63,688 bases of DNA, filler included, from 5 parts of 5 records of this genome joined end to end with filler, not necessarily neighbours in it, one strand, 5' to 3'. Positions 5,677-63,688 are shown, counted from the whole stretch's first letter. The notes: generated by a model not told the origin, from the sequence alone. Numbers and translations are program-made.

Positions 5677-5776
5677 NNNNNNNNNNNNNNNNNNNNNNNN
5701 NNNNNNNNNNNNNNNNNNNNTTAATTAATTAANNNNNNNNNNNNNNNNNNNNNNNNNNNNNNNNNNNNNNNNNNNN
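5677..5776. other. Artificial contig spacer (N44-TTAATTAATTAA-N44)
   Basis: N runs around a palindrome with stops in all six frames. Genes on both sides are truncated. Confidence 0.99.
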
Positions 5777-8592: not shown

Positions 8593-9051
8593 CTGAGCAG
8601 ACAATCACAGGACCTCAAGGTCCAGCAACGGCCCGGCAGGGCAAAGCCCGCCAGGGTAAGTGAAAAGGCCACCGCGCAGACGACGGCGCAGAGGGCCGAT
8701 ACCGGCAAGTCTTCCGGGATGCTCGCTCTCGTGCTCGAGAGCCTGGAGGAAGACAAGGCCGAAGAAGTGGTTTCCATCGATCTGACCGGAAAGACACCCA
8801 TCGCCGACCATATGGTGGTCGCGAGCGGGCGGTCGCAGCGCCATGTCGGCGCGGTGGCCGACCATCTCGTGCGCCGCCTGAAGGAGGCCGGGTTCGGCAC
8901 GTCGCAGGTCGAGGGAATGAAACAGGGCGACTGGGTGCTCATCGATGGCGGCGACGTGGTGGTCCACGTGTTCCGCCCCGAAGTGCGCGAGTTCTACAGG
9001 CTGGAGAAGATGTGGTCTGCCGATATACCGGCCGACCAGTTGGCTGTCTGA
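8593..9051 (+). CDS. rsfS: Ribosome silencing factor RsfS (Iojap); start uncertain
   Basis: DKAEEVVSIDL, VASGRSQRHV and WVLIDGGDVVVHVFRPEVREFYRLEKMW. Start placed at the in-frame CTG 7 nt after AGGAG (8581-8585); ATG 8719 is an alternative. Confidence 0.93.
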   Translation: MSRQSQDLKVQQRPGRAKPARVSEKATAQTTAQRADTGKSSGMLALVLESLEEDKAEEVVSIDLTGKTPIADHMVVASGRSQRHVGAVADHLVRRLKEAGFGTSQVEGMKQGDWVLIDGGDVVVHVFRPEVREFYRLEKMWSADIPADQLAV

Positions 9052-9130: not shown

Positions 9131-9613
9131 ATGCGCGTTCAGATCTGCGCCGTGGGACGGCTGAAAGCCGGGCCCGAAAAGCTTCTTGTTGGCGAGTACA
9201 TGACGCGCCTCGATGCGGCCGGACGGGCGCTCGGCATTTCCGCGCTGCCTGTCGCCGAAGTCGAGGAAAAGCGGAAGCTCGATGCGCCCGCGCTGATGAT
9301 GCGAGAGGCGGAACTTCTGCTCGGCGCGGCGGCAAAAGGGGCGACAATCGTCGCCCTCGACGAGCGCGGGAAAACCGAAAGCAGCGAAGCCTTCGCCAAA
9401 AGACTGGGGAACTGGCGCGACACCGGCGTTGCCGACATCGCCTTCGTCATCGGCGGCGCGAACGGGCTCGCACCCGAGATACGCGAGAAAGCCGCGCATA
9501 TCATGGCGTTCGGCGCGATGACATGGCCGCATATGCTCGCGCGCGCAATGCTTGCCGAGCAGCTCTATCGTGCCATTACGATACTCTCCGGCCACCCTTA
9601 TCATCGCGCCTGA
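9131..9613 (+). CDS. rlmH: 23S rRNA pseudouridine1915-N3-methyltransferase
   Basis: [16 protein letters not shown] and [33 protein letters not shown] 9131 with GGGGGA RBS. Confidence 0.96.
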
Positions 9614-19585: not shown

Positions 19586-19685
19586 NNNNNNNNNNNNNNN
19601 NNNNNNNNNNNNNNNNNNNNNNNNNNNNNTTAATTAATTAANNNNNNNNNNNNNNNNNNNNNNNNNNNNNNNNNNNNNNNNNNNN
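19586..19685. other. Artificial contig spacer
   Basis: N44-TTAATTAATTAA-N44. Confidence 0.99.
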
Positions 19686-41010: not shown

Positions 41011-41298
41011 CAGTTCGCTGTCTGGCCCCGCGTCATGCATCGTGGAATTGGAACGATCCGGGCGCAGCTGAGTTGGTCCGCCGGAAAGGTGCGCGCGGCG
41101 GGCTGCGCGCTGTGACCGCGTCACGCAACCAAACGAGTGGGCAAATGATGTCCCACATCGCTGTGGTGAAAAAACCGGCGATGTTCAGGTGTTTAAACGA
41201 TCACAAGCCCGGAAAACCGGCAAGCCGCCGCAATGGGGGGATGCAAATCCCCTGCGTACCTGAAATGGTGACGCAAAATGTCAGGGGAAGCCGAAAAA

Positions 41299-44200
41299 AT
41301 GGCCATTTACGCAAGCATACGCCACCTTACGCATTACAAGTATGACCGCAACGTCACGATGGGGCCCCAGATTATCCGCCTGCGTCCCGCACCCTATAGC
41401 CGGACACGGGTGATTTCCCATTCTCTCAAGGTGTCGCCGCAGCCGCATTTCGTTAACCACCAGCAGGACCCCTATGGCAACTGGTTGGCGCGCTATGTGT
41501 TTCCCGAACCCGTGCGCGAGTTCAAGATTGAGGTGGACGTTGTGGCCGATATGTCGGTCTACAATCCGTTTGATTTCTTTGTTGAGGAATCTGCCGAGTT
41601 CTATCCGTTTGAGTATCCGGCCGAGCTGGTGGATGATCTGTCGATCTATCGCCGGGCAGAGCCTGCGACGCCGATGCTGGCCGAGTTCATCAAACAGATC
41701 CCGACGGACAAGACCCGGATTGTTGACTGGCTGGTGATGCTGAACGCCAAGGTGGCAAACGACATCGAATATACCATCCGCATGGAAGCGGGGGTGCAGA
41801 CGCCGGAAGATACATTGCAAAAGGCGCTGGGATCGTGCCGGGATTCAAGCTGGCTGCTGGTCAATGTGCTGCGGCATCTTGGCCTCGCGGCACGGTTCGT
41901 GTCGGGATATCTGATCCAGCTGAAGCCGGATCTTCAGGCGTTGGATGGCCCGTCGGGAACAGAACAGGATTTCACCGACCTGCACGCCTGGGTCGAGGTG
42001 TATTTGCCTGGTGCGGGTTGGATCGGGCTTGACCCGACAAGCGGTCTGTTTGCGGGGGAATCGCATATCCCGCTGGCCGCGACGCCGCATTACCAGAATG
42101 CAGCACCCATTTCCGGTGGCTATCAGGCACAGGGCACGCCCGAGGTCGAATTTGAATTCGACATGACGGTGACCCGGGTTGCCGAACATCCCCGCATCAC
42201 CAAGCCGTTTTCCGAGGAAAGCTGGCAGCGGCTGAACAGCTTGGGCAAGCAGATCGATACCGAGCTTGAGACCGGCGATGTGCGTCTGACCATGGGTGGC
42301 GAGCCGACGTTCGTGTCGATCGACGATTATGAAGCGGCTGAGTGGAACACCGCCGCCGTGGGGCCGACCAAACGTGGCCTTGCCGATCAGTTGATCCGCC
42401 GGTTGCGTGACAAATTCGCGCCGGGTGGGTTCCTGCATTATGGGCAGGGCAAATGGTATCCGGGCGAGACCCTGCCGCGCTGGACCTTTTCGCTGTACTG
42501 GCGCAAGGACGAAAAGCCGATCTGGGCCGATGCGGACCTTGTCGCGCTCGAGAATGCCGAAACCGGGGCCGATGCACAAAAGGCGGGTGAGTTTATTGCC
42601 CAATTTGCACAGGAGCTGGGGATCGAGCCGGATATGGCCGTGCCTGCCTATGAGGACCCCGCCGAGTGGATCATAAAGGAAGGCAACCTGCCCGAGAATG
42701 TGACCCCCGAGAATTCCAAGCTGAAGGACCCCGAGGAACGCCACCGCATCGCGCGGGTGTTCGGGCGCGGGTTGACCGAGCCGTCGGGCTTTGTGCTGCC
42801 GATCCAGCGCTGGCAATCAAAGGCATCGGGTCGCCAGTGGCGGTCTGAGAAGTGGAAGCTGCGGCGCGGGCATGTGTACCTCGTGCCCGGGGATTCGCCT
42901 GTCGGGTATCGTATCCCGCTGGGTGCGCTGCCCCATGTGCCGCCTGCGGCCTACCCGTACACTTATGTCACCGATCCCAGCGTGAACCGCGATCCGCTGC
43001 CTGAATACGATCAAGGCATCACGACGCCCGAGGTGACGGCGCAGCACAGCCAGCCGGTGTCGGCACCCGCAGCGCAGAAGGCCGTGCAGGATGTGATCGA
43101 GCAGGAGCTGGGCGGCGTTGGCGGGGCCGTGCGCACCGCGATGACGGTCGAGCCGCGCGATGGCAAACTGTGCATCTTTATGCCCCCGGTCGAGGATATG
43201 GAAGATTACCTTGACCTGATCGCCGCAGCAGAACGCACCGCCAAAAAGATGGGTCTGCCGATCCATATCGAAGGCTATGCGCCGCCCCACGATCCGCGCA
43301 TCAACGTGATCCGCGTAGCACCCGACCCCGGTGTGATCGAGGTGAACATTCACCCCGCCGACAATTGGGACGACTGCGTGGCCACGACCGAGGCGATCTA
43401 TGAAGAGGCGCGCCAGTGCCGTCTGGGGGCTGACAAGTTCATGATCGACGGGCGCCACACCGGAACCGGCGGCGGCAACCACGTTGTTGTCGGCGGGGCC
43501 ACGCCCAATGACAGCCCGTTCCTGCGCCGTCCCGATCTGCTGAAATCGCTGATCCTGACCTGGCAGCGGCATCCGTCGCTGTCCTATCTGTTTGCCGGGT
43601 TGTTCATCGGGCCGACATCGCAGGCCCCCCGGATCGACGAGGCGCGGCACGATACGCTATATGAGCTGGAAATCGCGCTGAGCCAGATTCCGGACCCGAA
43701 AAACGCGCCGCCACCACCGCCCTGGTTGGTGGATCGTCTGCTGCGCAACATGATGACGGATGTGACCGGTAACACCCACCGGGCCGAAATCTGCATCGAC
43801 AAACTGTTTTCGCCCGATGGCCCGACGGGGCGGCTGGGTCTGGTCGAATTTCGCGGGTTCGAGATGCCGCCGGACCCCAAGATGAGCCTTGCCCAGCAGG
43901 TGCTGATCCGGGCGATAATTGCGCGGTGCTGGAATGATCCGATCAGCGGCACCCCGGTTCGTTGGGGTACAGAGCTGCACGACCGTTACATGCTGCCCCA
44001 TTACCTGTGGCAGGATTTCATGGATCTGCTGCGCGATCTGGATCAGCACGGCTTCAAGCTCGACCCCGAATGGTTCGTGGCGCAGGAAGAGTTCCGTTTC
44101 CCGTTCTGCGGGCAGGTGGAATATGAAGGCACCAATCTGGAGATCCGTCAGGCGCTGGAGCCTTGGCACGTGCTGGGCGAAACCGGCGCAATTGGCGGCA

Positions 44201-44646
44201 CCGTGCGCTATACCGACAGTTCGGTGGAACGGTTGCAGGTCAAACTGACCACGTCGAACCCGGAACGGTATGGCGTGACCTGTAATGGCCGCACCGTGCC
44301 GTTGCGCAAGACCGACACCAGCGGCGTGTCTGTCGCGGGCGTACGGTTCAAGGCGTGGCAACCGGCCGAGGCGCTGCACCCGACGCTGCCAGTTGATGCG
44401 CCGCTGACGTTTGATATCTTTGACAAATGGTCGGGTCGGGCGCTGGGCGGTTGTGTCTATCACGTGGCGCATCCGGGTGGACGGAACTATGAGACCTTCC
44501 CGGTCAATGGTAACGAGGCCGAGGCACGCCGTCTGGCGCGGTTCGAGGCATTGGGCCACAATCCCGGTGCCTATTGGCCGCCGCAGGACCAGACCCACCC
44601 CGAGTTTCCGATGACGCTTGACCTGCGTCGGGCGCCCGGGATCTGA
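41299..44646 (+). CDS. Transglutaminase-like protein fused to DUF2126 (putative COOH-NH2 ligase)
   Basis: HLTHYKYD...IRLRP N-domain and GSCRDSS / HAW / LDPT triad, then LTMGGEPTFVS, APDPGVIEVN, TGGGNH, GNTHRAEICIDKL and VEFRGFEMPP. Confidence 0.9.
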   Translation: MAIYASIRHLTHYKYDRNVTMGPQIIRLRPAPYSRTRVISHSLKVSPQPHFVNHQQDPYGNWLARYVFPEPVREFKIEVDVVADMSVYNPFDFFVEESAEFYPFEYPAELVDDLSIYRRAEPATPMLAEFIKQIPTDKTRIVDWLVMLNAKVANDIEYTIRMEAGVQTPEDTLQKALGSCRDSSWLLVNVLRHLGLAARFVSGYLIQLKPDLQALDGPSGTEQDFTDLHAWVEVYLPGAGWIGLDPTSGLFAGESHIPLAATPHYQNAAPISGGYQAQGTPEVEFEFDMTVTRVAEHPRITKPFSEESWQRLNSLGKQIDTELETGDVRLTMGGEPTFVSIDDYEAAEWNTAAVGPTKRGLADQLIRRLRDKFAPGGFLHYGQGKWYPGETLPRWTFSLYWRKDEKPIWADADLVALENAETGADAQKAGEFIAQFAQELGIEPDMAVPAYEDPAEWIIKEGNLPENVTPENSKLKDPEERHRIARVFGRGLTEPSGFVLPIQRWQSKASGRQWRSEKWKLRRGHVYLVPGDSPVGYRIPLGALPHVPPAAYPYTYVTDPSVNRDPLPEYDQGITTPEVTAQHSQPVSAPAAQKAVQDVIEQELGGVGGAVRTAMTVEPRDGKLCIFMPPVEDMEDYLDLIAAAERTAKKMGLPIHIEGYAPPHDPRINVIRVAPDPGVIEVNIHPADNWDDCVATTEAIYEEARQCRLGADKFMIDGRHTGTGGGNHVVVGGATPNDSPFLRRPDLLKSLILTWQRHPSLSYLFAGLFIGPTSQAPRIDEARHDTLYELEIALSQIPDPKNAPPPPPWLVDRLLRNMMTDVTGNTHRAEICIDKLFSPDGPTGRLGLVEFRGFEMPPDPKMSLAQQVLIRAIIARCWNDPISGTPVRWGTELHDRYMLPHYLWQDFMDLLRDLDQHGFKLDPEWFVAQEEFRFPFCGQVEYEGTNLEIRQALEPWHVLGETGAIGGTVRYTDSSVERLQVKLTTSNPERYGVTCNGRTVPLRKTDTSGVSVAGVRFKAWQPAEALHPTLPVDAPLTFDIFDKWSGRALGGCVYHVAHPGGRNYETFPVNGNEAEARRLARFEALGHNPGAYWPPQDQTHPEFPMTLDLRRAPGI

Positions 44647-44650
44647 ACTG

Positions 44651-47047
44651 GTGGATGCTGCCAGTACAAACGATAATGATGCCATAGCCGCGCTGGTCCG
44701 CGGCTATGGCATTCCTGCGGGCGTGTCGGACGAGATGATCGGCGCGGACGGGCAGGTGCGTCCGGTCTGGCGGCCCTTTCTGCAACGTTTTGCCCGTCTC
44801 AGTGTCGAGGAAATCGCGCGTCGCTTTGACCGGGGTGACAGGTATCTGCGCGATGCCGGGGTGTTCTATCGCCAGTTTCGCGAGGCGGATTCGACCGAAC
44901 GCGACTGGCCGCTGAGCCATGTCCCGGTCCTGGTGGACGAAACCGAATGGACGCAGATCACCGCCGGGCTGCGCCAGCGGGCAGATCTGCTCGAATTGGT
45001 TGCGCGGGATCTCTATGGCCCCGGCAATCTGGTGCGCAAAGGGATGCTGCCGACCGAACTGGTGGCGGGCAACCCGGCATGGCTGCGCCCGATGGTGGGC
45101 ATTGAACCCAAGTCGGGGCATTTCCTGAATTTTGTGGCCTTTGAACTGGGGCGCAATCCGGATGGGTCGTGGTTTGTGCTGGGGGACCGGACCGAGGCCC
45201 CTTCGGGGGCGGGGTTTGCGCTCGAAAACCGGGTTGCGACCATGCGAACCTTTTCCGACCCCTTTCCGCATGGCACGATCCACCGGCTGGCGGATTTCTT
45301 TCGCGATTTCCGCAATTCGATGCAGGGCGTCGACCCGAGCCCGGAAACCCGCGCGGCGATCCTGACCGCCGGTATCGGGACAGAGACCTATTTCGAACAT
45401 GCCTATATCGCGCGCTACCTTGGGCTTATGCTGCTTGAGGGTGAGGATCTGGTGGTCGAACAGGGCCGCACGATGGTGCGCACCGTGGCTGGCAACAAAC
45501 CGGTTTCGGTGCTGTGGCGGCGCATGGATGCGGCCTTTGCCGATCCGCTGGAACTGAATGACAAGAGCCAGATCGGCACGCCGGGTTTGGTGAATTCGAT
45601 CCGGTCCGGGCATCTGTCGATGTTCAACGCGCTGGGGACCGGGGTTTTGCAGACGCGGGCGTTTCTGGCGTTTCTGCCGCGCATCGCGCGTGAATTGCAG
45701 GGCCAGCCACTGTTGATTCCGAATATTGCGACATGGTGGTGCGGTGGTGCGACCCAGCGCGCCTATGTGCAGGCGCATTCGGACCGCATGACCATCGGTG
45801 ACGCGCTGGCGCAGGATTTGCCGTTCGAGGTGGAGGACAGCACGGTGGTCGCGGGGCGGTTTCCCGATGGCCGCGTCGCGGATGTTGCCGGGTTACTGGC
45901 CGCGCAGGGCCCCGCGCTGGTTGGCCAGGAGGCGGTGAGCCTGTCCACAACACCCGTTTACGAGGACGGTCGGCTGGTGCCGCGCCCGGTCATGTTGCGG
46001 GTGTTCGCGGCGCGTACGGCGCAGGGCTGGTCGATCATGCCGGGGGGATATGCGCGCATTGGCCCAAGTGGCGATGCCACGGCGCTGTCGCTGCGCAGCG
46101 GCGGGTCGGTGGCCGATGTCTGGATCGTGTCAGACCGCAACGTGCCGACCGACCGGTTTGCCACCGTCGAACGCCCGTTCCAGCGCGCCACGCCCAGCAT
46201 GCTGCCGTCGCGGGCGGCGGACAACCTGTACTGGATGGGGCGCTATGTCGAACGGGCCGAGGGTCTGATCCGGCTGGCGCGATCCTATCACATCCGTCTG
46301 GCCGAGGCCGGCGTTTCGGACGATCTGCGGGTCGCCCGGATCGCAAAATATCTAGGCCGGACCGGGGTCAAGCTGGACACGCCGGTGCCACCGGACATTC
46401 TGGGCCATATTCAGCATGCGATCTATTGCGCGGCCAAGGTGCGGGACCGTTTTTCCATCGACGGCTGGATCGCGCTGCGATCGCTCGAAGAGGAAATCGT
46501 CGATGCCCGCGCGCCCCTGCCGGGGGATGAGGCGGCGCGGGCGCTTGGCCTGATGTTGCGCGGCACGGCGGCCTTTGGCGGTTTGGTGCATGACAACATG
46601 TATCGTTTTGTCGGTTGGCGGTTTCTGAGCCTGGGTCGGGCGTTGGAGCGCGCGCAGGTGATGACCCGCCTGCTGGCCGATTTCGCCGCACCCACCGCCC
46701 CCGAGGGCAGTTTCGACATCGCAATCGAGGTGGGGGATTCGGTGATCACCCATCGCCGCCGTTATCTGATCCAGACAAACCGCAGCACGGTCATCGATCT
46801 GCTGGCGCTGGATCCCCGCAACCCGCGGTCGGTGCGGTATCAGGTAAGTGCGATCCGCCGCCTGATTGCAGAACTGCCTGGCGCTGAGGTAAATGGAGAG
46901 CTGTCAGAACTGGCGCGCGCCATTCTACGGGTTGAAACCAGCCTGTCCGTGGCCGATCCGGCGCGGTTGGATACCGATCAGCTGACCTCGATGTCCCGCG
47001 CGCTGGGGCGGGTTTCGGATCTGCTGACCCAGAGTTATCTGACGTAG
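44651..47047 (+). CDS. Circularly permuted ATP-grasp type 2 protein fused to an alpha-E domain
   Basis: DRTEAPSGAGFALENR, TYFEHAYIARYLG, DPLEL, MPGGYAR and ADVWI, then alpha-E ER motifs GRYVERAE and GRALERA and NPRS. Start at GTG 44651 is uncertain. Confidence 0.9.
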   Translation: MDAASTNDNDAIAALVRGYGIPAGVSDEMIGADGQVRPVWRPFLQRFARLSVEEIARRFDRGDRYLRDAGVFYRQFREADSTERDWPLSHVPVLVDETEWTQITAGLRQRADLLELVARDLYGPGNLVRKGMLPTELVAGNPAWLRPMVGIEPKSGHFLNFVAFELGRNPDGSWFVLGDRTEAPSGAGFALENRVATMRTFSDPFPHGTIHRLADFFRDFRNSMQGVDPSPETRAAILTAGIGTETYFEHAYIARYLGLMLLEGEDLVVEQGRTMVRTVAGNKPVSVLWRRMDAAFADPLELNDKSQIGTPGLVNSIRSGHLSMFNALGTGVLQTRAFLAFLPRIARELQGQPLLIPNIATWWCGGATQRAYVQAHSDRMTIGDALAQDLPFEVEDSTVVAGRFPDGRVADVAGLLAAQGPALVGQEAVSLSTTPVYEDGRLVPRPVMLRVFAARTAQGWSIMPGGYARIGPSGDATALSLRSGGSVADVWIVSDRNVPTDRFATVERPFQRATPSMLPSRAADNLYWMGRYVERAEGLIRLARSYHIRLAEAGVSDDLRVARIAKYLGRTGVKLDTPVPPDILGHIQHAIYCAAKVRDRFSIDGWIALRSLEEEIVDARAPLPGDEAARALGLMLRGTAAFGGLVHDNMYRFVGWRFLSLGRALERAQVMTRLLADFAAPTAPEGSFDIAIEVGDSVITHRRRYLIQTNRSTVIDLLALDPRNPRSVRYQVSAIRRLIAELPGAEVNGELSELARAILRVETSLSVADPARLDTDQLTSMSRALGRVSDLLTQSYLT

Positions 47048-48576: not shown

Positions 48577-48676
48577 NNNNNNNNNNNNNNNNNNNNNNNN
48601 NNNNNNNNNNNNNNNNNNNNTTAATTAATTAANNNNNNNNNNNNNNNNNNNNNNNNNNNNNNNNNNNNNNNNNNNN
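48577..48676. other. Artificial contig spacer
   Basis: N44-TTAATTAATTAA-N44. Confidence 0.99.
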
Positions 48677-54658: not shown

Positions 54659-54758
54659 NNNNNNNNNNNNNNNNNNNNNNNNNNNNNNNNNNNNNNNNNN
54701 NNTTAATTAATTAANNNNNNNNNNNNNNNNNNNNNNNNNNNNNNNNNNNNNNNNNNNN
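54659..54758. other. Artificial contig spacer
   Basis: N44-TTAATTAATTAA-N44. Confidence 0.99.
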
Positions 54759-54788
54759 GTCGTCGTCGTCGTTGTCGTTGTTGTTGTT
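54759..54788 (+). repeat. (GTC)n/(GTT)n microsatellite
   Basis: GTCGTCGTCGTCGTTGTCGTTGTTGTTGTT at the contig edge. Confidence 0.85.
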
Positions 54789-54913
54789 CCTCAAGTCGGG
54801 TTTGGTGCTCGTGTGGGCGCGGCAGTTACACTAAGGAAATCTTTGTGCAGGCACTGTGCTTGCCCTGATTGATTGATTCACAGAGTGGCAGCTGACCCAG
54901 TGGTTGGAGCTCA

Positions 54914-55060
54914 GTGTGTGCGTGTGTGTGTGCGCGCGTGCGCGTGAGAGTCGAAAGAAGCGAAGGTTGCTGCTGGTCGACGAACACCTATGGACTGATT
55001 GTTGAACTCTTTTGAGTTGCCAGGGCTGTGACGGGCAGACAGGCAGACAGGCAGACAGGC
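54914..55060 (+). repeat. Simple repeats upstream of the eukaryotic gene: (GT)n/(GC)n and GGCAGACA x3
   Basis: GTGTGTGCGTGTGTGTGTGCGCGCGTGCGCG at about 54914-54944. GGCAGACA tandem at about 55034-55057. Confidence 0.8.
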
Positions 55061-55070
55061 GGGCGGGGGC

Positions 55071-58000
55071 ATGGCGGACGCAGCAGCGGGCAAGCGCAGC
55101 GGCGGAGGCACTGCCTCTGACCCGGACATACTTGCCCACAGCAACTTGAGGCAGACAGGGCGGCGCCTGTCTGTGTCGCTGGATGGCTCAGGCCAGCAGG
55201 TGGAAGTTGACACGGGTGAGCTGAATGCGGTTGCCAAGCTCCTCAGCACAGATCGAATTGTGGAGCAGAAGGCCAGAGCCGTGCGACGACGGGCCGATGA
55301 GCGCCGGCGGCGTCGCAAGGGCATGGACAAGGTTGCAAAGCGCAATGATAAGATTCAGGAACTGTTCCAGACGTTCGACATTGACGGCGACGGCACGATT
55401 GATGAAATTGAGTTCGGCGAAGTCATTCGTTTTTTGCGCATCCCCATTCCACCAGAAAACATCACTCGCACGTTCATGACGATTGATACTGATGGCACGG
55501 GTAGCATTTCGCTGCGGGAGTTTCAGACTTGGTACAACGGCGACGGGAAAACCCTGATCAAACAAAACGGCCTGGAGAGGTTTCGCATGAACCTCCGAGA
55601 CTTGTCGGAGCCCGCGCGCAAAGCGCGTGACATGACCGTCGCGAAATACGAAATCCTGCGCGAGAATTTCCGGCGGCAGCGTCAGGTTCTGAAAGATCAG
55701 GAACGGGCCAAGCGCGAGCTAGAAGAGGCAAAACGCCTTGCAGAGGAAGCAGAGGCAGAGGCAAAGCGGATGGAAGAGTTAGAAGATTTGGCGCTTGAAG
55801 CAGACGCCGCCTTACTTGACGAAGATGATCACCTTGAAGGGCACCTTGATGATCTCGACAGCGACGATGACGGCGAAAGTGGAAGCCACGGCAGCGGCGT
55901 TGAAAACTCCGCCTCGACCCCACACGAGGCGAAGAATCCCTCACAGCCCGAGTGGCGGCAGCGCCGACACAATTACCTCATGGGACCTGATGTTCGGCAT
56001 ATCTTGACAAGAGTCAACTCTGTTCCTTACTCAGGGTTAGTGCTGCAGGTTTCTGGGCGGCAACAACGCAGTCGGGACAAAGATGAGTCGGACCATGAAA
56101 CCGAGCTAGAAGCCGAAGATGACGATAATGACGACCGCGAGGACGAAAGTAAACAGGAGAGCGACTTCCCTTTTCGACTTCGCATCCTTCTTAAGACAAC
56201 GCACCCAAGCGAGGCGGCGACCTTGGCAGCAGTGGCGGAATATTGCGACGCCGCGAGCAAAGGCGATGAGCCACCAAAGCCATTGATCGTGTTGCTCAAA
56301 ACGTCAGCTACGTTCTTCCACCCGGCTGCGGTTCTTGGCTTAGCAGCAGGCGGCGGCGGTGGTGTGTCAACCGTAGCATCAGGGGCAACCGAGGTTGCTG
56401 CATCGAGTGCTGCTCCTGGTATTGGAGCGGGATTCACGGGAGATTTTGTCAGCTGGCGTGCTGTATGCCACGTGCCAGCTGCTCTATTGCACCACGAGCT
56501 TGCCGTCTTCTTGCGCGCTTACCGGTACCTCGTGAGCGACCCAGAGTTGCGAAATTTCGTTGCAGGGACAACTGCCTTCGGTATGAGTGGTGTACCGTAT
56601 ATGCGTGACTTTGGTGCACTAGCAGGAACGGGGAGTTTTACTGGACTGCGGGGGGAGCCACATGCCGGTGGCGACGGTGGCCAAGCACTTCGAGAGATTC
56701 GCTTAGGGCTAGCGCTTCGCTCCTCCGAAATTGCCGAGCCTTTGACGCACGATGACGCGGTCGATGCTAGTGGGGCCAATCATACCCAGGTTAAGTCCGT
56801 TAGTGGTGGCAACAGCACCGTGTTTGCGCGGGAAGCGGACCTGCTGCAGCTTCACGAGCTGCTTGTCAGTGGCGACGGGCCTCGCTCGGATGGGCGTGGT
56901 GTGGTGGTTATTGCTGGATCAAGTGGCGTCGGAAAAGCTGCAGTTGTGTCCGCATATGCCCGCGTTGCATCGTTTAGGTTCCCGTTGGGCGTTTATACAA
57001 TCCGCCTCGACAATCCCTTTGAGCGCGAGGCGAGTGTTCGCGACACCGTGGTCAAGTTGGAAACTCTTTTTCCAGGTGCGTTTGGCTCACGTGTGGAAGT
57101 CGGCACAGCGGACAGCGACAAAATTGCAAGTGTCTCTGAAAGCCAAGCGCCGGCGGTGCGTTCCCACGGCGCCGCTGTCGACGATCTTACACCAGCAGAA
57201 AGGACACTTCTGCATCACCTGCACACCACTGCCGGGTGGTTGTTGGTGCTGCCAAACATTCAATCGTCGGCCCAGTTGCAGGAATTTTTGGGACGTTGGG
57301 ACCTGATCGATCGCTGCCGCGCCGGGTGCGGCAGCGTCGTGGCCACAACAGCCCTCGCCCCGGCTGATTTTGGCGAATACACTAGTGCAGCCGGCGATGA
57401 GTCAGACTACAAGCCTGCGATGTTTAGAATCCAGCGGTTGTCGAGTTTCTCGCGCCAAGAAGGCTCTGCGTTTTTGTTGGGTTGCGTCTACAGTTTTTTT
57501 CCTTCGATGTCTCCGCAGCCATCGACGAATTCAGACACTGATGGTGCTGATGCGGCCGAAGCAGCCGCAGTTCACTCTGCCAACATGGTCGGCGCTGCGT
57601 GCAAGAGGATCGTGAAGCTGGCTCGAAATAGCCCTTGCGCGCTGAAAGTATGCGTTGACGGAATTGCACAGGTGCTCCGACGGCAGCAGCAGGAGCGAGT
57701 TCCTGAAGTTAAACTTGTTGGCAGCGATAGTGATGACGAGGAGAACGAGGGAAATGATGAAGTGGAGCAGAACACGAGCCGTCACCTGCTGGCGTGCAGT
57801 GAGGCGGACGTGGCAGCAGCGCTGGAAGAGTATGCCGATCATCTTGATGGAGCGGCGGCGGGCTTGTCCAGCCCAAGAACTGGCTCTTTGGTGGCTGTGG
57901 AAGTTGCTGCAGCACTTGCTGCCAACACCGCGATTCTCAAAGCTGGTTTTCCGAAGCAGTGGAAGCAAGCGTCGTTAGTTCTCCAGCTTTGTGCAGCTGT

Positions 58001-61000
58001 CCGAAACCGTCGGGTGCCACTCAGCCTGGCCGCCCAGTTTTTAGCTGGAGCTGCGGAGGTCTTGTCGGGCAAGGCTCCGTCTGCACGAGGAACGGCAAAA
58101 GCTGAAATACAAGCGTTGCGCGTTGTGGGGCTGCTTGAAGCAAGCGGGTTGCTGGTCACGCGGTGCCATTTTGGCGCACCAGAGCCTCAGGGTGACCATC
58201 CAAACGCCCCAGGATCTGCCGGCACGGCCTTGCGGCTTGACTCTACAGTTCTTTTTTTCAATCATGCCATCCACGAAGCACTTGGGCATCTTATTGAGAC
58301 AAAAGTAAAGCTTCTACCAGTGATAGCTGGACTTTTTCACGACACGTACCGCGGTGCCGTAGCCGCCGCCCTTGGCAGCAGCTCAGGTGTGCCTCCCCGT
58401 GACACTGGCGAAGGTGATGTTTCACTGAGGTCAGGCAACCGTCTCGTTACGCCCGAGGGTTGCCTGTCGGCACTGCATACGCCTTTCAGCGCACCGCAGG
58501 CGACGTCTCGACAGAAGAGGAATCGCGGGAAGAGCAGCAACAATGGGCAGCGCGAAAAAAGTGCCCCTGTAGTTGGGGGGGAAGTTGCCTCCCTTGCGGT
58601 CGCGGAGAGCATAGCGCATCTTCACGCGCTGCTTTCGAAACATCGCGTGTCAAAAATTCAAATCAAGCGGTCATTGGATGATTTTCTTCACTACTTTCTG
58701 GATTTGGGGTTGTTTGCAACGGAACTTCATGCAGCAGAACTTGCCCAAGAATACTTTGGTTTGTACTACAGATAGTTTGGATTGCTTGCAGGGTTTTGCG
58801 TTGCGGTCTTGGCTTCATGTGGTTGTGTGGTCGTGTCTCCTTCAGTCACGCTTGCTTTCTCCGACGCTGGTTGAACAATATGTGCGTGGCTATTTTCTGT
58901 GTGCAGACCAGGTGTGCCACTGGGTGGGTTATGCCCCAGACAAGCCATCCAAGAAAGAAGCGGCGACCGGAATGATCCCACGCGCTGCGGCGCTGCATCG
59001 GCACATGGCCTTTGTCGCACACAGGCAGCGCATTTCATTGCTTGCTGCAGATCGTAATTTTGACGCTGCTTTGGGCCAGTGTCGTGAACTTCATCAACTT
59101 CTCCGGCTCGGTGCGCAAGGTGCAGCAGCTATGCGGAAGCATGGGAACCTTTCTGAAGACGGAGGAGGCGGCGAACCCAAATTCTTCACCCACGATCCAG
59201 AGCTGGGTGCGCTGTTGCTGGCGGCAAGCTTGCTGGAGGCGGACTTGCGCTGGCGAATGCACAGCTGGGAGCCTTGCTATGCTGCCTATGACAAGGTCAT
59301 GGCAACTCCAGCAAAAGCAGGAAAGACTGTGAAGCCAGGTATTTTTGGCAAATCAAATTGCAATGGTGGCTGTTGCGAGCGCGAGGCAAGGCTCACTGAA
59401 ACGTTTTGCGTGCCCTGTCGACGTCGTTGTGCTGCTAGGGCTCACGTCTTATCCACCGGATTCCGTGGCGGCTCGCGTGACGTACCGCATGGGCTTCATC
59501 CGGCTGCACCGAGTATTTCGCCGCTCTGCTTCTGTGTCAGCGCGGCAGCAAACGCTTAAGCGGGGTGGCCCCGATGACGCCAAGATCCATGAGGTGGAAG
59601 CAGCGGCAGAACTTGTTCAGCGGTCCCTTGCACTGCAGCAAGCGGTCTATGGCGGCGCCGTGGCGAGATTTGAAACCGGCCTTGCGCTTCATGCGCTCGG
59701 CAATGCACTGACTTTGCTCCTTCCATCGCCGGTGAAAGCGCTTGGAATTATTGAACAGGCGCTGGCGATGTTTCAACGATTGCTGGCACAATTGGGAAGC
59801 AAGCCGTCAATTGTCTTGAATGCTGGTGCACACAAGCAAGAACAAACGGCAAATCAAGCAGCGTCAGCTGTGGCAATGTTGGCGCCCGAAACTGCCTTTT
59901 CCGAAGCCAATCTGGCAAGGGGGGCAGAGTTGCAGCGTTTGGGAATCGACTGGACCCTCGCCGACCTCGTCGTTGCCATCGGCCATGTATATTACGACCT
60001 GGGCGTGCATTTTTTGGGGGGTGCCCCTCTTCCAAAACTACAGACAGTGAAGGAAATTACAGAAGAGTCCGAGGAGACAAAGGAGCAAGCCCTTTCGAAT
60101 GAGTTGTCTCGGCGAGAGCAGGCCGCAGCTGCCGTTGTATCAGCAGGCGCGGCCGCCCTTCCATATTTCCGTTCGTGTTTGGAACATTTATTGCTTGTGA
60201 AAAACGATCCATCCGTTGCGTCGTTCTGCTCCAGAGGTGTTCAGCGTGCTCATGAGCGGATTAAACAGTGCTACGTGGCGTTTTTTGAGAATCCTGTGCC
60301 TACAAGGGTACAGGATGCCGCTTCTTCCTTGGAGAAGGTCAGTGCTCTTCTTGGACAGAGAGAAAGCCGGCGTCTGCTCAAAAGAACACGTTCTGACAAT
60401 TTCGTTTGTGTGTATGCGCTCATTTGCATTAATCGGGTGCTTTTGTGTCACAAACTGCTCCGAACGTGTGCCTGTTTGAAGGAGGGGTCTTCCGCACGTT
60501 CAGGTCGGTTGACCGGACGAGCACTACTCCGCGAAATCATTCGGTTGCATCCGGTAGTTCACTCGCCGCAGGGAAAAGTGCGCGCGTTGGCAGTGAGGAC
60601 AGCTCGCCGCAACAGCAAGTCATTAGCTGGCCCAGGCCAAACCACGTCCGCGTTTTCTCCAACCACTGGCGATGCACAATTGATTGTTTGCGAAGTGGAT
60701 GACCTGCGGCTTCAATGGATTCGGCGGCACTTGAAACAGGCAGCGTACGTTTGACTTGTGGCACTTTTCGGATGGCAGGCGCAGAACAGATTGTGCTTTG
60801 TGTGCACACCTGCATGTCAGAACTTTGTTGTTCAACGTGTTGATTCTTTGTGATTCGGCAGTTACCTTCGTTTTACGGATTTATCATCGCTGATTAAAAA
60901 ATGCCGCGCGATCCATCGCAAGGAGCAACGTGATCGCGAGGAATCAGGCACGTCCCCAACTGCGACAAAGTCTGGTTTGGTGATTCCAAGACGCAACTTC

Positions 61001-62607
61001 AATGGCATAACTTTGCCGGAGCTGCAAAGAGTTGTGCGCGTTGAGCTGGACGTGCCAGCACGTATGGTCACCGACGATGAAATTGCAAACATCTTTCACT
61101 ACGTCTCTCAGGTGCGATGTCTCTCGCAACTTTTTTCTGTCACACGCGGCTGAAACACTGCTCCATCTTACACGGGTGTGCACGGGTGTGCTGGAGAGTG
61201 GTGACTTGTTGCCCCGACATGTGAGCGATGTGTGGAACTGATTTCTTGCTCGTTGATTTCAGGGTGGGGAAGGCATCGAATACGGCGAGCTGCTGCGTTT
61301 CTTGGTTGACGAAGAGCTGCTGAAAAAGATCCATTTCAAGCTCCAGGCAGCAACGTACAAGTTTGGTGGTCGGGACTTGGAAAACGAAGTATTTCGAAGG
61401 CAGGATGGGGATGGGAGCGGCCAGCTTGACTTCCCGGAGTTTGTGTCGCTGTTCCGAAAGGTTTTGCGGCTCACTCCGCAAGAATGTTCCGACATTGACA
61501 TTCGAACGGTGTTCGAGTACATGGGGGGGAGCTATCTTGCTGGAGTGCAGCAAGAGAGGTTCAAAGAGTTTCTGGACGAGGACTTCGAGCTGGACTTCAT
61601 TTCCAGACGTCTCAAGGTACGTGTTGGCGCGCATATTCAGTTTCGCACCGGGGTACAGGTGTCGAGGTTGTGTGAACTGGCAGAGTTTGCTTGTACATTA
61701 GCATTGTCTCTTTCATTAAATCCGTTTCGGTTGCATGTTTGGCGCCTAGGCTCGAAAGTGGCACATTCCATCAGCAGACGAGCTACTGGGGTCTGGACTG
61801 CAGGAGTGCATGAAACTCAATCGTAGCATTGTGAAGTTGCGGCCGTCGAATGGGCCGGGTTCGAATAGTTCCGGTAGAAGCAAAAGTGCGAAGGTGAAAA
61901 GGAAGAAGAGCAACAAGAGCGGCAGCAGTAGTAGCAGCAACAGTAACACACCTCACCGCCGCCATTCGAATTCCAAATCAGACTCGGTTGGTAGCTCGCG
62001 TCATCGTCGCACGCGTTCCGGTTCAGCTCGAGGCAGCGACACTCGTGGCGTTGCGGCTCGGCGGCGCTCATCTGGCGGGAAGCTGGCATCTACGAGAACT
62101 CCAACACGCTCTCGCGACAGTTCGCGAGGCCCGCCGGCGAGCAACACGAAGGCGAAGGGCAACGGAAGTTCGAAGCCACCACGGTCACGATCACGCTCAG
62201 CATCCGAACCTAGCGGGGCTGCAACCAGCAGTAAGGGGGACAGCAAGCACAAAGTTCGGCGAAGTAGTGGATCTGGTGCAAGTAGCCGAGGTAGCAACAG
62301 CAGTCGAAGCAGCAGCAAGCTGAGCGACGAAACTCTGGAGCAGGGTTCTGGAGGCACACCGTCCACGTCCGAACGTCCACAGGCATTGCCTGCGACTTCC
62401 TCCAAGCTGACGGCCAGCCAGTGTGTGCTTGAGTTTTTTGAGGCACACCACCCCAAAAAGTTGCACGAGGTTCCTGCGGTGCTCTCCAAGTTCCGCGGTA
62501 AGGAACGTAAGTTGCTGCGCACGATCGTCAAGCTCTACGGTGACACGGCCAAAGAGTTTTTCGAAGCAAATGGTTTCAAGGTCAAGATGAAGGACTCTGG
62601 CAAGTGA
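55071..62607 (+). CDS. Spliced eukaryotic gene: EF-hand / coiled coil / degenerate NB-ARC-like NTPase / TPR-like / EF-hand / Ser-rich protein, about 2,295 aa
   Basis: Exons 55071-58758, 58907-59338, 59439-60744, 60862-61111, 61263-61616 and 61750-62607 join in frame through GT-AG introns (6,888 nt including the stop). EF loops are DIDGDGTIDEIE, DTDGTGSISLRE and DGDGSGQLDFPE. Confidence 0.75.
58759..58906 (+). other. Spliceosomal intron (phase 1)
   Basis: GTTTGT...TGTGCAG. Removal joins F-D-Q-V in frame. Confidence 0.75.
59339..59438 (+). other. Spliceosomal intron (phase 1)
   Basis: GTATTT...GCTAG. Removal joins P-G-L-T in frame. Confidence 0.65.
60745..60861 (+). other. Spliceosomal intron (phase 2)
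   Basis: GTACGT...GGCAG. Opens an 83-codon exon missing from the ORF track. Confidence 0.75.
61112..61262 (+). other. Spliceosomal intron (phase 0)
   Basis: CAG|GTGCGA...TTTCAG. In frame with the 61302 ORF. Confidence 0.8.
61617..61749 (+). other. Spliceosomal intron (phase 0)
   Basis: AAG|GTACGT...CCTAG. In frame with the 61810 ORF. Confidence 0.75.
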
Positions 62608-62818
62608 AGTGCCGCAAATGCCAGCAAGGCACTGTGATGAGTCGATCGATAGTGCACTTTTATTTGAGAATAATACATTGTCGACGTTCGTAGATGAGTG
62701 TTTTACCAAAAAGGAAGCAGAAAGACAGACGCCGTTGAAGTTGTTTCGTCAAGAGTCACGCAGGAAATTTAATATTCGAGTTTGTTGCCTTCAGTTGGCA
62801 GCTTGCTCGCACAGGCTA

Positions 62819-63688
62819 CTATGGATGCCCAAACGTCGGATGGTGCGCTGCTTTGCATTCCGGCAATCGGGAGCTGTTGGCGATCGCGCTGCACATGGTC
62901 GAAGTGTTCGCACATGACGGCGGGGTGACGTTGCGCTCCTCACCGAGGGCCATGCAAATGGCACCGAGCACTTCTAGCGGCGTTGGTCCGCACACGAGGG
63001 GAACCGCCTGCGTGGTCGTGACACGGTGAGCCCCGACCGTCACCACAGGTAGCCCACGAGTGCCATAAGTCGCATTGTCTTGGACGCATTGTCGCGCGGA
63101 CGCACTTTGCAAGCTTTGTCCAAGCGCGGAGCTGGGGTCTGCACACGCCTGCAGCGTCGCCCAGTCAATTCCACCCGCGTACGCGCAGTTGCGCATGATG
63201 TCGTTGCCACTCGGATCGGTGAAGTTGTTGTAGGTCGCGCACGGCTGCAAGCACGCAAGTTCAGTGAACACGTCGCACAGCATGCACTGCCCGTACGAGC
63301 AGGACTGGAAGTCGAGCCACACATGCGATGTTCGATACGTAGGTGGCGAGTCCGGTGCCCCCGCTGCAGCTGCAGCGACGGCGAGATGCTGCGCACACAG
63401 GAAGTATCGATGGCCGAGGCATTCCTCCGGTCCGTGAATGCACTTGAACAGCTGCGAGTCATTGAATGGCTTCGGGCAATGGCTGACTGCGTCGTTGCAG
63501 GCCGGCTCAAAGAACTGCCGGAAATCCAGCAGCTCTTGAAAGTCGGGATGGTCCAGAATATGCTTCATGTCAGCCACAAACTGCGCGCTGCACGGACACT
63601 GAGCGTCCGAGTACATCGTCGCCATCAACAGTGCTGAGCCAGCAGAGGCAGAGACAGAGGCAGAGGCAGCAGCAGCAGCAGCAGCAGC
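62819..63688 (-). CDS. GILT (gamma-interferon-inducible lysosomal thiol reductase) family protein, 5'-truncated
   Basis: YSDAQCPCSAQFV active-site region and FKCIHGPEECLG signature (CxHGxxEC). The frame stays open to the window end through a poly-Ala/Ser stretch. Confidence 0.75.
   Translation of the reverse strand, partial: AAAAAAAASASVSASAGSALLMATMYSDAQCPCSAQFVADMKHILDHPDFQELLDFRQFFEPACNDAVSHCPKPFNDSQLFKCIHGPEECLGHRYFLCAQHLAVAAAAAGAPDSPPTYRTSHVWLDFQSCSYGQCMLCDVFTELACLQPCATYNNFTDPSGNDIMRNCAYAGGIDWATLQACADPSSALGQSLQSASARQCVQDNATYGTRGLPVVTVGAHRVTTTQAVPLVCGPTPLEVLGAICMALGEERNVTPPSCANTSTMCSAIANSSRLPECKAAHHPTFGHP
63666..63688 (+). repeat. (GCA)n microsatellite, encoding poly-Ala on the minus strand
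   Basis: GCAGCAGCA... running to the window end. Confidence 0.85.

Follow-up and report, generated by a model that had tools for sequence, protein, structure and literature searches.

A giant EF-hand protein conserved along its whole length, with a probably NB-ARC-like P-loop module that lacks catalytic residues

STAND- and NLR-type proteins are understood as nucleotide-driven switches. The stretch of DNA analyzed here (the window; 63,688 nucleotides, five contigs joined by spacers) carries at positions 55071 to 62607 a giant gene whose product combines a P-loop module apparently of this type with EF-hand domains near both ends, and it raises the questions of what role a nucleotide-binding and oligomerization domain (NOD) core could have without an ATPase cycle and whether Ca2+ can take over. 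A preliminary description of the window had pictured the protein as a Ca2+-gated, NLR-like scaffold of a protist built on a hydrolysis-dead STAND module. The reading we favor, to which we give about an even chance, is that the protein is a conserved, lineage-restricted, Ca2+-responsive scaffold or hub with a hydrolysis-dead core derived from NB-ARC, and not a diversifying immune receptor.

Six stop-to-stop open reading frames (ORFs) lie on the + strand of the locus (55032-58775, 58615-59559, 59333-60754, 60854-61153, 61257-61826, and 61750-62607). Junctions read by hand gave five frame-consistent GT..AG introns and a possible sixth of 144 nt, in frame, inside the third ORF. A public sequencing run (X1) contains 0.89 of the sampled words from the stretch, its type being guessed as RNA, and its contigs were aligned to 54760-63600, with 54910-55070 skipped as repetitive. 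One X1 contig of 7,998 letters matches 55071-63600 with 0 other letters, minus six GT..AG stretches; however the run is labeled, a contig spliced in this way directly attests a processed transcript. The giant gene is one gene with one mRNA of seven exons, and its coding sequence of 6,744 nt encodes 2,247 aa and has its only stop at the end. All five introns of the preliminary description are skipped, and they are exactly those required to connect its ORFs in frame; the exon that it had found outside the listed ORFs is exon 5 (60862..61111), and its view of the exons as a single gene is borne out by the one contig that joins all seven. Its protein of about 2,295 aa was too long; the sixth intron (60338-60481), in frame and stop-free, had been read as coding. 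Retention of that intron would add 48 residues and leave the frame unbroken. The ATG at 55071 agrees with the N-termini of two orthologues described below (P0007 and P0008). The X1 contig has 173 extra letters 5′ of 55071 and continues across the neighboring convergent gene, so the transcript ends of the giant gene are not defined by it.

A profile search (HMMER) with residues ~548-1229 against 1.84 billion cluster representatives, at E-values up to 0.001, returned six matches, of which four are true relatives (P0007, P0008, P0010, and P0012); the other two, P0009 and P0011, were rejected as spurious matches driven by repeats. The four are metagenome proteins, unnamed or annotated as hypothetical. 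P0007 (1,111 aa, 42% identity) and P0008 (1,020 aa, 37% identity) are products of the first exon truncated at the first intron, and P0010 and P0012 are fragments. P0007 is encoded on a 13.2-kb seawater-metagenome contig (L001), the one true orthologous locus among the 18 found by a metagenome scan; the other 17 match only the EF-hands. A tblastn search of the spliced giant protein on L001 covered residues 27-2240 in colinear order. Four of the six intron positions are common to the two loci (introns 1, 3, 5, and 6), introns 2 and 4 are absent in L001, and L001 has two introns of its own, at 8870-8935 and 9170-9260. The first of these has no frame-fitting GT donor, and a GC-AG intron would fit there.

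Could the protein be an artefact, either of a misassembled contig or of separate neighboring genes merged into one? The contig of the gene is one of several joined in the window, and the assembly that they come from is mostly bacterial; the X1 contig also spans the convergent neighbor, so such contigs can merge transcripts. Against this, all seven exons are connected in frame by a single contig that has 0 mismatches and whose splice borders are canonical GT..AG, an independent metagenome contig repeats both the domains and their order and shares intron positions, and 2,247 codons run without an internal stop. We regard an artefact as very improbable.

Identity to L001 varies along the protein: 83% in the N-terminal EF-hand pair (58 of 70 residues), 72% in the N-terminus, 63% in a charged helix, 49% in a middle domain, 48% in both the lid and the winged-helix-like region, 40% in the nucleotide-binding domain, and 29-34% in the linkers. 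The EF-hand pair is thus the best-conserved part of the protein, and the nucleotide-binding domain its least conserved folded part. With exon 6 (61263-61616) as the query, the only additional relatives were P0019, P0020, and P0021. A scan of viral contigs found no relative of the giant protein, and a homologue search with the family alignment (A3) had only the window's own protein among the matches listed. Its family is conserved from end to end, and its distribution in sequenced data is very narrow. That only four true relative clusters were found in 1.84 billion, and three more by exon 6, points to a family that is small and not expanded, and conservation so narrow and orthologue-like is unlike that of immune receptors in an expanding family.

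The N-terminal EF-hand pair contains two canonical loops, DIDGDGTIDEIEF at 55377 and DTDGTGSISLREF at 55485, both similar to PS00018, where the preliminary description had seen them. Pfam EF-hand_7 matches the pair well above its cut-off (E 3.4e-11, 43.8 bits versus 30), and calmodulin lobes match it at E 1e-10 by way of the pair of P0008. Both Ca2+ loops are invariant in the three orthologues (the window protein, P0007, and P0008). The NCBIfam models XopAW and deiodinase_rel also match the pair, far below their cut-offs.

In the P-loop module the positions expected to act on Mg-ATP have changed. The preliminary description had listed GSSGVGKA as Walker A (56916-56939), WLLVLPNI in the place of Walker B (57237-57260), VVATT in the place of sensor-1 (VVATTA, 57336-57353), and LARNSPCAL as a GxP-like motif (57618), and each was found there. 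At Walker A the window protein reads GSSGVGKA, P0007 GMSGVGKK, and P0008 GPNGVGKK; compared with GxxxxGK[ST], the lysine is kept, and the Ser/Thr is replaced by Ala in the window and by Lys in P0007 and P0008. The place of Walker B (LLVLPN, ALLVHG, and LLILIG, in the same order) departs from hhhhD(D/E): no acidic residue lies within 8 positions in any of the three orthologues, and in the hhalign register a Pro, His, or Ile falls on the Asp of LLV(L)D in NB-ARC templates. The place of sensor-1 reads ATTA, AVSD, and ATCA; it aligns, with low confidence, to (T)TR in the templates for NB-ARC and AAA_16, and the Arg is missing in all three. The preliminary description was right in its changes of Walker A Thr/Ser to Ala and Walker B Asp to Pro, and the sensor-1 Arg is a third loss. 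Because all three orthologues lack the Mg2+-coordinating Ser/Thr of Walker A, the Asp of Walker B, and the Arg of sensor-1, the loss is ancestral to the family. In NLRP3, single changes at the Walker B Asp, sensor-1 Arg, sensor-2 His, or P-motif Pro left ATP turnover at 0.10-0.20 of wild type, and at 0.10-0.19 for the first three positions, in the part of the study cited here (PMC9633759). Set beside the residues lost here, these mutants make loss of hydrolysis a reasonable inference, and the P-loop module most likely no longer hydrolyzes ATP. The low identity of the nucleotide-binding domain (40%) fits relaxed constraint after the loss of catalysis.

To which P-loop class the module belongs was addressed by hhalign comparisons of the family alignment (Neff 1.65), with E-values that are those of single comparisons. 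Templates were taken from bacterial genomes and chosen by Pfam family: 12, later 14, NB-ARC sequences, 11 AAA_16, 5 AAA of FtsH type, 7 other AAA, and 20 NACHT. No ArsA was found in five of the genomes searched, and the ArsA set consisted of three half-proteins from two loci. The strongest and most extended matches were to NB-ARC: 95.1% probability and E 3e-8 over 114 columns with 12 templates, starting at the helix that precedes the P-loop and including Walker B, and 95.9% and E 5.6e-9 over 147 columns with 14, reaching the place of sensor-1. AAA_16 matched over 229 columns (72.9%, E 3.1e-5), with the GRE.EL helix, Walker A, Walker B, sensor-1, "LS..E", and GxP in register. Four sets matched at the P-loop only: ArsA (81.2%, E 1.2e-5, 32 columns), other AAA (81.0%, E 1.2e-5, 47 columns), NACHT (25.5%, E 7.5e-4, 29 columns), and FtsH-type AAA (25.1%, E 7.7e-4, 28 columns). 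For scale, the NB-ARC templates match AAA_16 at E 3e-15 over 302 columns, NACHT at 2e-9 over 172, ArsA at 7.8e-7 over 29, and other AAA at 3.3e-5 over 40. In null tests the E-value was 0.63 for the reversed family alignment and 0.33 for the best among 20 alignments with shuffled columns. By hhalign the nucleotide-binding domain thus resembles NB-ARC more than any of the five other P-loop template sets. The FxRExxLL helix before the P-loop is of AAA_16/STAND type, and a search by ESM features with residues 500-1111 of P0007 pointed to NB-ARC/nSTAND3/nSTAND1 and TPR_12 clusters at cosine 0.96-0.98, a measure that has no calibration for parts of proteins. These comparisons make it likely that the nucleotide-binding domain is NB-ARC-like.

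Several results weigh against this assignment and against the reading built on it. Neither the giant protein nor its orthologues match NB-ARC, NACHT, or nSTAND in Pfam or any STAND model in NCBIfam or PADLOC, and Pfam AAA_16 stays below its cut-off of 32.6 (18.6 bits, E 0.0028, for the window protein; 27.1 bits, E 6.7e-6, for P0007). The hhalign signal comes mostly from Walker A and the helix before the P-loop; once Walker A is removed, the E-values are not significant (0.03-0.05 for NB-ARC and 0.065 for AAA_16), although these two are still the best sets and in the right order. The regions after Walker B alone reach less than 1% probability. A profile search of the PDB gave only a designed P-loop protein and ArsA (E 0.01-0.13), and no relevant PDB sequence was found by phmmer with the NTPase region. 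A reverse search of 401 Pseudomonadota genomes gave four weak matches confined to the P-loop, two to STAND proteins (BTAD-AAA_16/NACHT-TPR and AAA_16/nSTAND5-TPR_12 by Pfam) and two to ArsA. The family alignment, moreover, is shallow.

The P-loop region might then be what is left of a different P-loop class (SIMIBI/ArsA-like or AAA+), or just a P-loop-like strand-loop-helix, in a protein that would be a scaffold of EF-hands and helical repeats. Plain HMM searches do find ArsA as often as STAND, the hhalign probabilities for ArsA and the other AAA proteins are too high to neglect, no curated STAND model matches, and the downstream STAND subdomains were not detected. The extent of the alignments speaks for NB-ARC all the same: the ArsA and AAA matches take in 32-47 columns around Walker A, whereas those to NB-ARC and AAA_16 continue through Walker B for 114-229 columns and show sensor-1 and GxP in their expected succession. 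A P-loop cross-match of this kind is to be expected, since ArsA is matched there by the bacterial NB-ARC templates as well. With the pre-P-loop helix and the ESM features also on the side of STAND, we consider an origin outside STAND unlikely.

Beyond the place of sensor-1 the likeness to NB-ARC proteins becomes faint. A lid with a GxP-like motif is plausible: NSPCAL, CNPCAL, and GNVCAL of the window protein, P0007, and P0008 line up with GNP(l) inside the AAA_16 alignment, and the lid region alone reaches E 0.056 at best. An MHD-like IHE, VHK, or IHL in the three orthologues was recognized only by eye, and no profile signal for a winged helix was found. The helical segments of the preliminary description are present, but their likeness to TPR stays short of significance, at E 0.11 with Pfam TPR_12 and E 0.05-0.09 when compared by hhalign with the TPR portions of STAND templates, and the arm has no sequence match in the PDB, which again counts against the reading that we favor. 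Pfam found no leucine-rich repeats (LRRs) in the giant protein. Of the complete STAND module that had been proposed, what stands is an NB-ARC-like nucleotide-binding domain; past Walker B and sensor-1 the lid is of low significance, and the winged helix and TPR were not detected.

The second EF-hand region was likewise right in part. Its loop DGDGSGQLDFPEF at 61404 is canonical, and Pfam EF-hand_1 falls just below its cut-off (E 1.4e-5, 24.7 bits versus 25.4). The family profile of this C-terminal domain matches radial spoke protein 7 (RSP7; E 3.2e-7) and calmodulins (~1e-5) in the PDB, and Ca2+ ligands are present in only one loop. Among four relatives the window protein and P0019 have a canonical loop, P0020 has a weakened one, and L001, with a deletion there, has lost it; this lack of conservation in L001 is a further point against the reading that we favor.

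The preliminary description had also held that EF-hands replace the usual effector domain. EF-hands do lie near both ends, but between the N-terminal pair and the NTPase there is a conserved middle domain of ~260 aa that may equally be an effector. This domain has no match in Pfam or the Atlas, its profile matches the PDB at E 0.96 or worse, and comparison with TIR_2 templates (E 0.083) gave no likeness. A charged helical stretch and acidic linkers come before it. Toward the C-terminus, the Ser/Arg-rich tail and small terminal domain seen earlier are both present: the tail is rich in Ser, Arg, and Lys by composition, poorly conserved, and shorter in L001, and the terminal domain is conserved. 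The latter has no Pfam or PDB match, and the C-terminal 72 aa have no relatives among longer proteins.

Taken as a whole, the locus is one seven-exon gene of a marine microbial eukaryote, and its 2,247-aa product would be a cytosolic multidomain protein. In order, it has a calmodulin-like EF-hand pair, a charged helical stretch, the conserved middle domain, a nucleotide-binding module probably derived from the NB-ARC/AP-ATPase branch of STAND NTPases, a TPR-like arm, a second EF-hand-like domain, a disordered tail rich in Ser, Arg, and Lys, and the small terminal domain. Without ATP hydrolysis the NOD core would most likely serve as a fixed structural or oligomerization core, Ca2+ binding at the N-terminal pair would be the regulated input, and the helical arm with the middle and terminal domains would bind partners; both the Ca2+ gating and the scaffold role are inferred. 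One specific mechanism, which we rate as quite a long shot, is that Ca2+ binding at the EF-hand pair, and not exchange of ADP for ATP, releases the hydrolysis-dead NB-ARC-like core to assemble. If true, a Ca2+ switch in place of a nucleotide switch would be an undescribed form of regulation of a NOD-type signaling platform.

The same order of parts could belong to a true immune or cell-death receptor of NLR type, in which the arm senses a ligand, the NB-ARC-like module oligomerizes, and an N-terminal part, either the EF-hands or the middle domain, executes a response. Some plant NLRs function without an intact P-loop, and a degenerate one might be tolerated here as in some sensor NLRs. The succession of an N-terminal domain, an NB-ARC-like nucleotide-binding domain, and a helical repeat-like arm is NLR-like. 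NB-ARC-TPR proteins are proposed pathogen receptors in Ectocarpus, with 24 loci, and one occurs in Acanthamoeba, according to the portions of these reports used here (PMC3341825, PMC4053784). An EF-hand domain (EF_hand_5) is an integrated domain in NLRs of three plant species in the consulted text of a survey (PMC4759884). The family to which the giant protein belongs is of a different kind: it is orthologue-like, colinear, 40-83% identical by domain, and limited to four relative clusters in the 1.84 billion representatives, whereas the Ectocarpus family is described in that part of its report as clustered, with fast birth and death and diversifying TPR exons (PMC3341825). The giant protein has neither LRRs nor repetitive TPR exons, and no known death or effector domain was found in it by Pfam or, in the middle domain, by the TIR_2 templates and the PDB profile. 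With none of the three catalytic or sensing positions retained in any orthologue, the protein is unlikely to be a switch driven by nucleotide. We therefore consider an immune receptor doubtful, and the scaffold or hub with a hydrolysis-dead NB-ARC-derived core is the reading with which we compare known systems.

With NB-ARC-TPR STAND proteins the giant protein shares an N-terminal region, an NB-ARC-like P-loop domain closest to bacterial NB-ARC, and a long helical arm; it differs in falling below the Pfam NB-ARC and TPR thresholds, in its lost catalytic residues, and in having EF-hands at both ends. From the Ectocarpus proteins it differs further in belonging to a small orthologue-like family, where those, in the passages cited, are clustered, turn over fast, are under diversifying selection, and have one TPR per exon (PMC3341825). 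TANC1 and TANC2 have a P-loop NTPase with HETHS, ankyrin repeats, TPR, a coiled coil, and disordered ends, with catalytic motifs conserved, as far as the consulted part of their description goes (PMC5533708). They would resemble the giant protein as very large conserved proteins with a STAND-type NTPase amid helical repeats, a coiled coil, and disordered tails, read there as scaffolds (PMC5533708), and they differ from it in having ankyrin repeats and conserved motifs and in lacking EF-hands. In kind, a non-immune STAND scaffold such as TANC is a closer counterpart than an immune receptor. NPHP3 is another non-immune STAND scaffold; the Pfam models NPHP3_N and TPR_NPHP3 do not match the giant protein.

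Plant NLRs with integrated domains (NLR-IDs), in the part of the survey already cited, likewise fuse an EF-hand to an NB-ARC-type protein (PMC4759884). They are NB-ARC-LRR receptors with a decoy-like added domain and a recognizable NB-ARC, unlike the giant protein, in which the EF-hand pair is the most conserved part, no LRR is present, and the NTPase is degenerate. By a strict definition of NLRs, as a NOD with LRRs in a multicopy, diversifying family, the giant protein falls outside, having no LRR and four relative clusters in 1.84 billion. Its N-terminal pair resembles calmodulin lobes, and its C-terminal domain resembles calmodulin and RSP7 of the flagellar radial spoke; here, however, the EF-hands are domains of a 2,247-aa protein, and one C-terminal unit has Ca2+ ligands.

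A literature search covering articles without their supplements found no description, outside plant NLR-IDs, of a protein with an EF-hand pair, an NB-ARC-like module, and a helical arm, nor, with the same coverage, of the triple motif loss in such a protein. EF-hands go unmentioned in the main text of a survey of effector domains in fungal NLRs (PMC9815663). As far as the parts of the sources consulted extend, EF-hand fusions to NB-ARC (in plant NLRs) as well as protist NB-ARC-TPR proteins are already known, and the domain order and the triple motif loss appear to be new. A family conserved across several organisms in which three Mg-ATP residues are lost and the Ca2+-binding pair is kept would be a natural test case for the two questions raised at the outset, and it would extend the known range of NB-ARC-like proteins beyond those of plants and animals by an architecture found in marine protists, which are poorly sampled. 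Its value at present is that of a well-defined candidate drawn from sequence, not of a demonstrated mechanism.

Table 1. Exons, introns, and protein regions of the giant gene, in coordinates of the window
Feature	Coordinates	Strand	Basis and details
Exon 1	55071..58758	+	Residues 1-1229 and first base of codon 1230; open frame, X1 contig
Intron 1	58759..58906	+	148 nt, GT..AG, phase 1; X1 contig; L001 intron at same position and phase
Exon 2	58907..59338	+	X1 contig, open frame
Intron 2	59339..59438	+	100 nt, GT..AG, phase 1; X1 contig; absent in L001, frame continuous
Exon 3	59439..60337	+	X1 contig, open frame
Intron 3	60338..60481	+	144 nt, GT..AG, phase 0, stop-free; X1 contig; L001 intron at matching place
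Exon 4	60482..60744	+	X1 contig, open frame
Intron 4	60745..60861	+	117 nt, GT..AG, phase 2; X1 contig; absent in L001
Exon 5	60862..61111	+	X1 contig, open frame; unlisted exon of the preliminary description
Intron 5	61112..61262	+	151 nt, GT..AG, phase 0; X1 contig; same position in L001
Exon 6	61263..61616	+	X1 contig, open frame
Intron 6	61617..61749	+	133 nt, GT..AG, phase 0; X1 contig; same position in L001
Exon 7, coding part	61750..62607	+	Stop TGA at 62605-62607; X1 contig, open frame
N-terminal EF-hand pair	55347..55535	+	Residues 93-155; Pfam EF-hand_7; two canonical Ca2+ loops
Charged helical stretch, coiled-coil-like	55623..55820	+	Residues ~185-250; read from sequence
Conserved middle domain with acidic insertion	55971..56750	+	Residues ~301-560; 49% identical to L001
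Probable NB-ARC-like nucleotide-binding domain	56820..57470	+	Residues ~584-800; hhalign against bacterial NB-ARC sets
Possible helical lid, GxP-like LARNSPCAL at 57618-57644	57471..57710	+	AAA_16 alignment
Possible winged-helix region, MHD-like AIHEAL near 58272	57891..58370	+	Residues ~941-1100; by eye
Helical TPR-like arm	58596..60337	+	Residues ~1176-1673, interrupted by introns 1 and 2; 54% identical to L001
C-terminal EF-hand-like domain	60992..61616	+	Residues ~1805-1962, split by intron 5; a single canonical loop at 61404-61442
Ser/Arg/Lys-rich low-complexity tail	61846..62418	+	Residues ~1995-2185; composition
Small C-terminal domain	62419..62604	+	Residues ~2186-2247; conserved in L001

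The surroundings of the gene bear on its origin. The spacers that join the five contigs lie at 5677-5776, 19586-19685, 48577-48676, and 54659-54758, and each consists of TTAATTAATTAA with 44 N on either side. Contigs one to four carry long genes of bacterial type without introns, among them genes for TmcA-like, iPGM, branched-chain amino-acid permease, FadB-like, DUF2126/transglutaminase, circularly permuted ATP-grasp, radical SAM, and HTH_3 proteins; the DUF2126 protein is 77-79% identical to proteins of Pseudooceanicola and other Rhodobacteraceae. The fifth contig (54759-63688) has a lower G+C content (52-57%) and holds the intron-bearing giant gene and a convergent GILT-family ORF. The giant gene is eukaryotic DNA within a mainly bacterial assembly, and the presence of bacterial contigs beside a eukaryotic fifth one means that the assembly is mixed or that the bin is contaminated with protist DNA. 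The protist origin given in the preliminary description is plausible.

An Rfam search of the contig of the giant gene and a scan for sigma-70 promoters 5′ of the gene gave no match. An 8-nt tandem repeat, GACAGGCA, present in 3.9 copies at 55030-55060, lies directly 5′ of the start codon. The convergent ORF at 62819-63688 on the − strand has a GILT (lysosomal thiol reductase) domain (E 8.8e-6), and the X1 contig crosses it to at least 63600, reflecting either overlapping 3′ ends or two transcripts merged by the assembler. On one of the bacterial contigs, at 41272-47047, the gene for the DUF2126/transglutaminase-like protein (Pfam 1336 bits) adjoins that for a circularly permuted ATP-grasp with an Alpha-E domain, and the two form a conserved bacterial gene pair.

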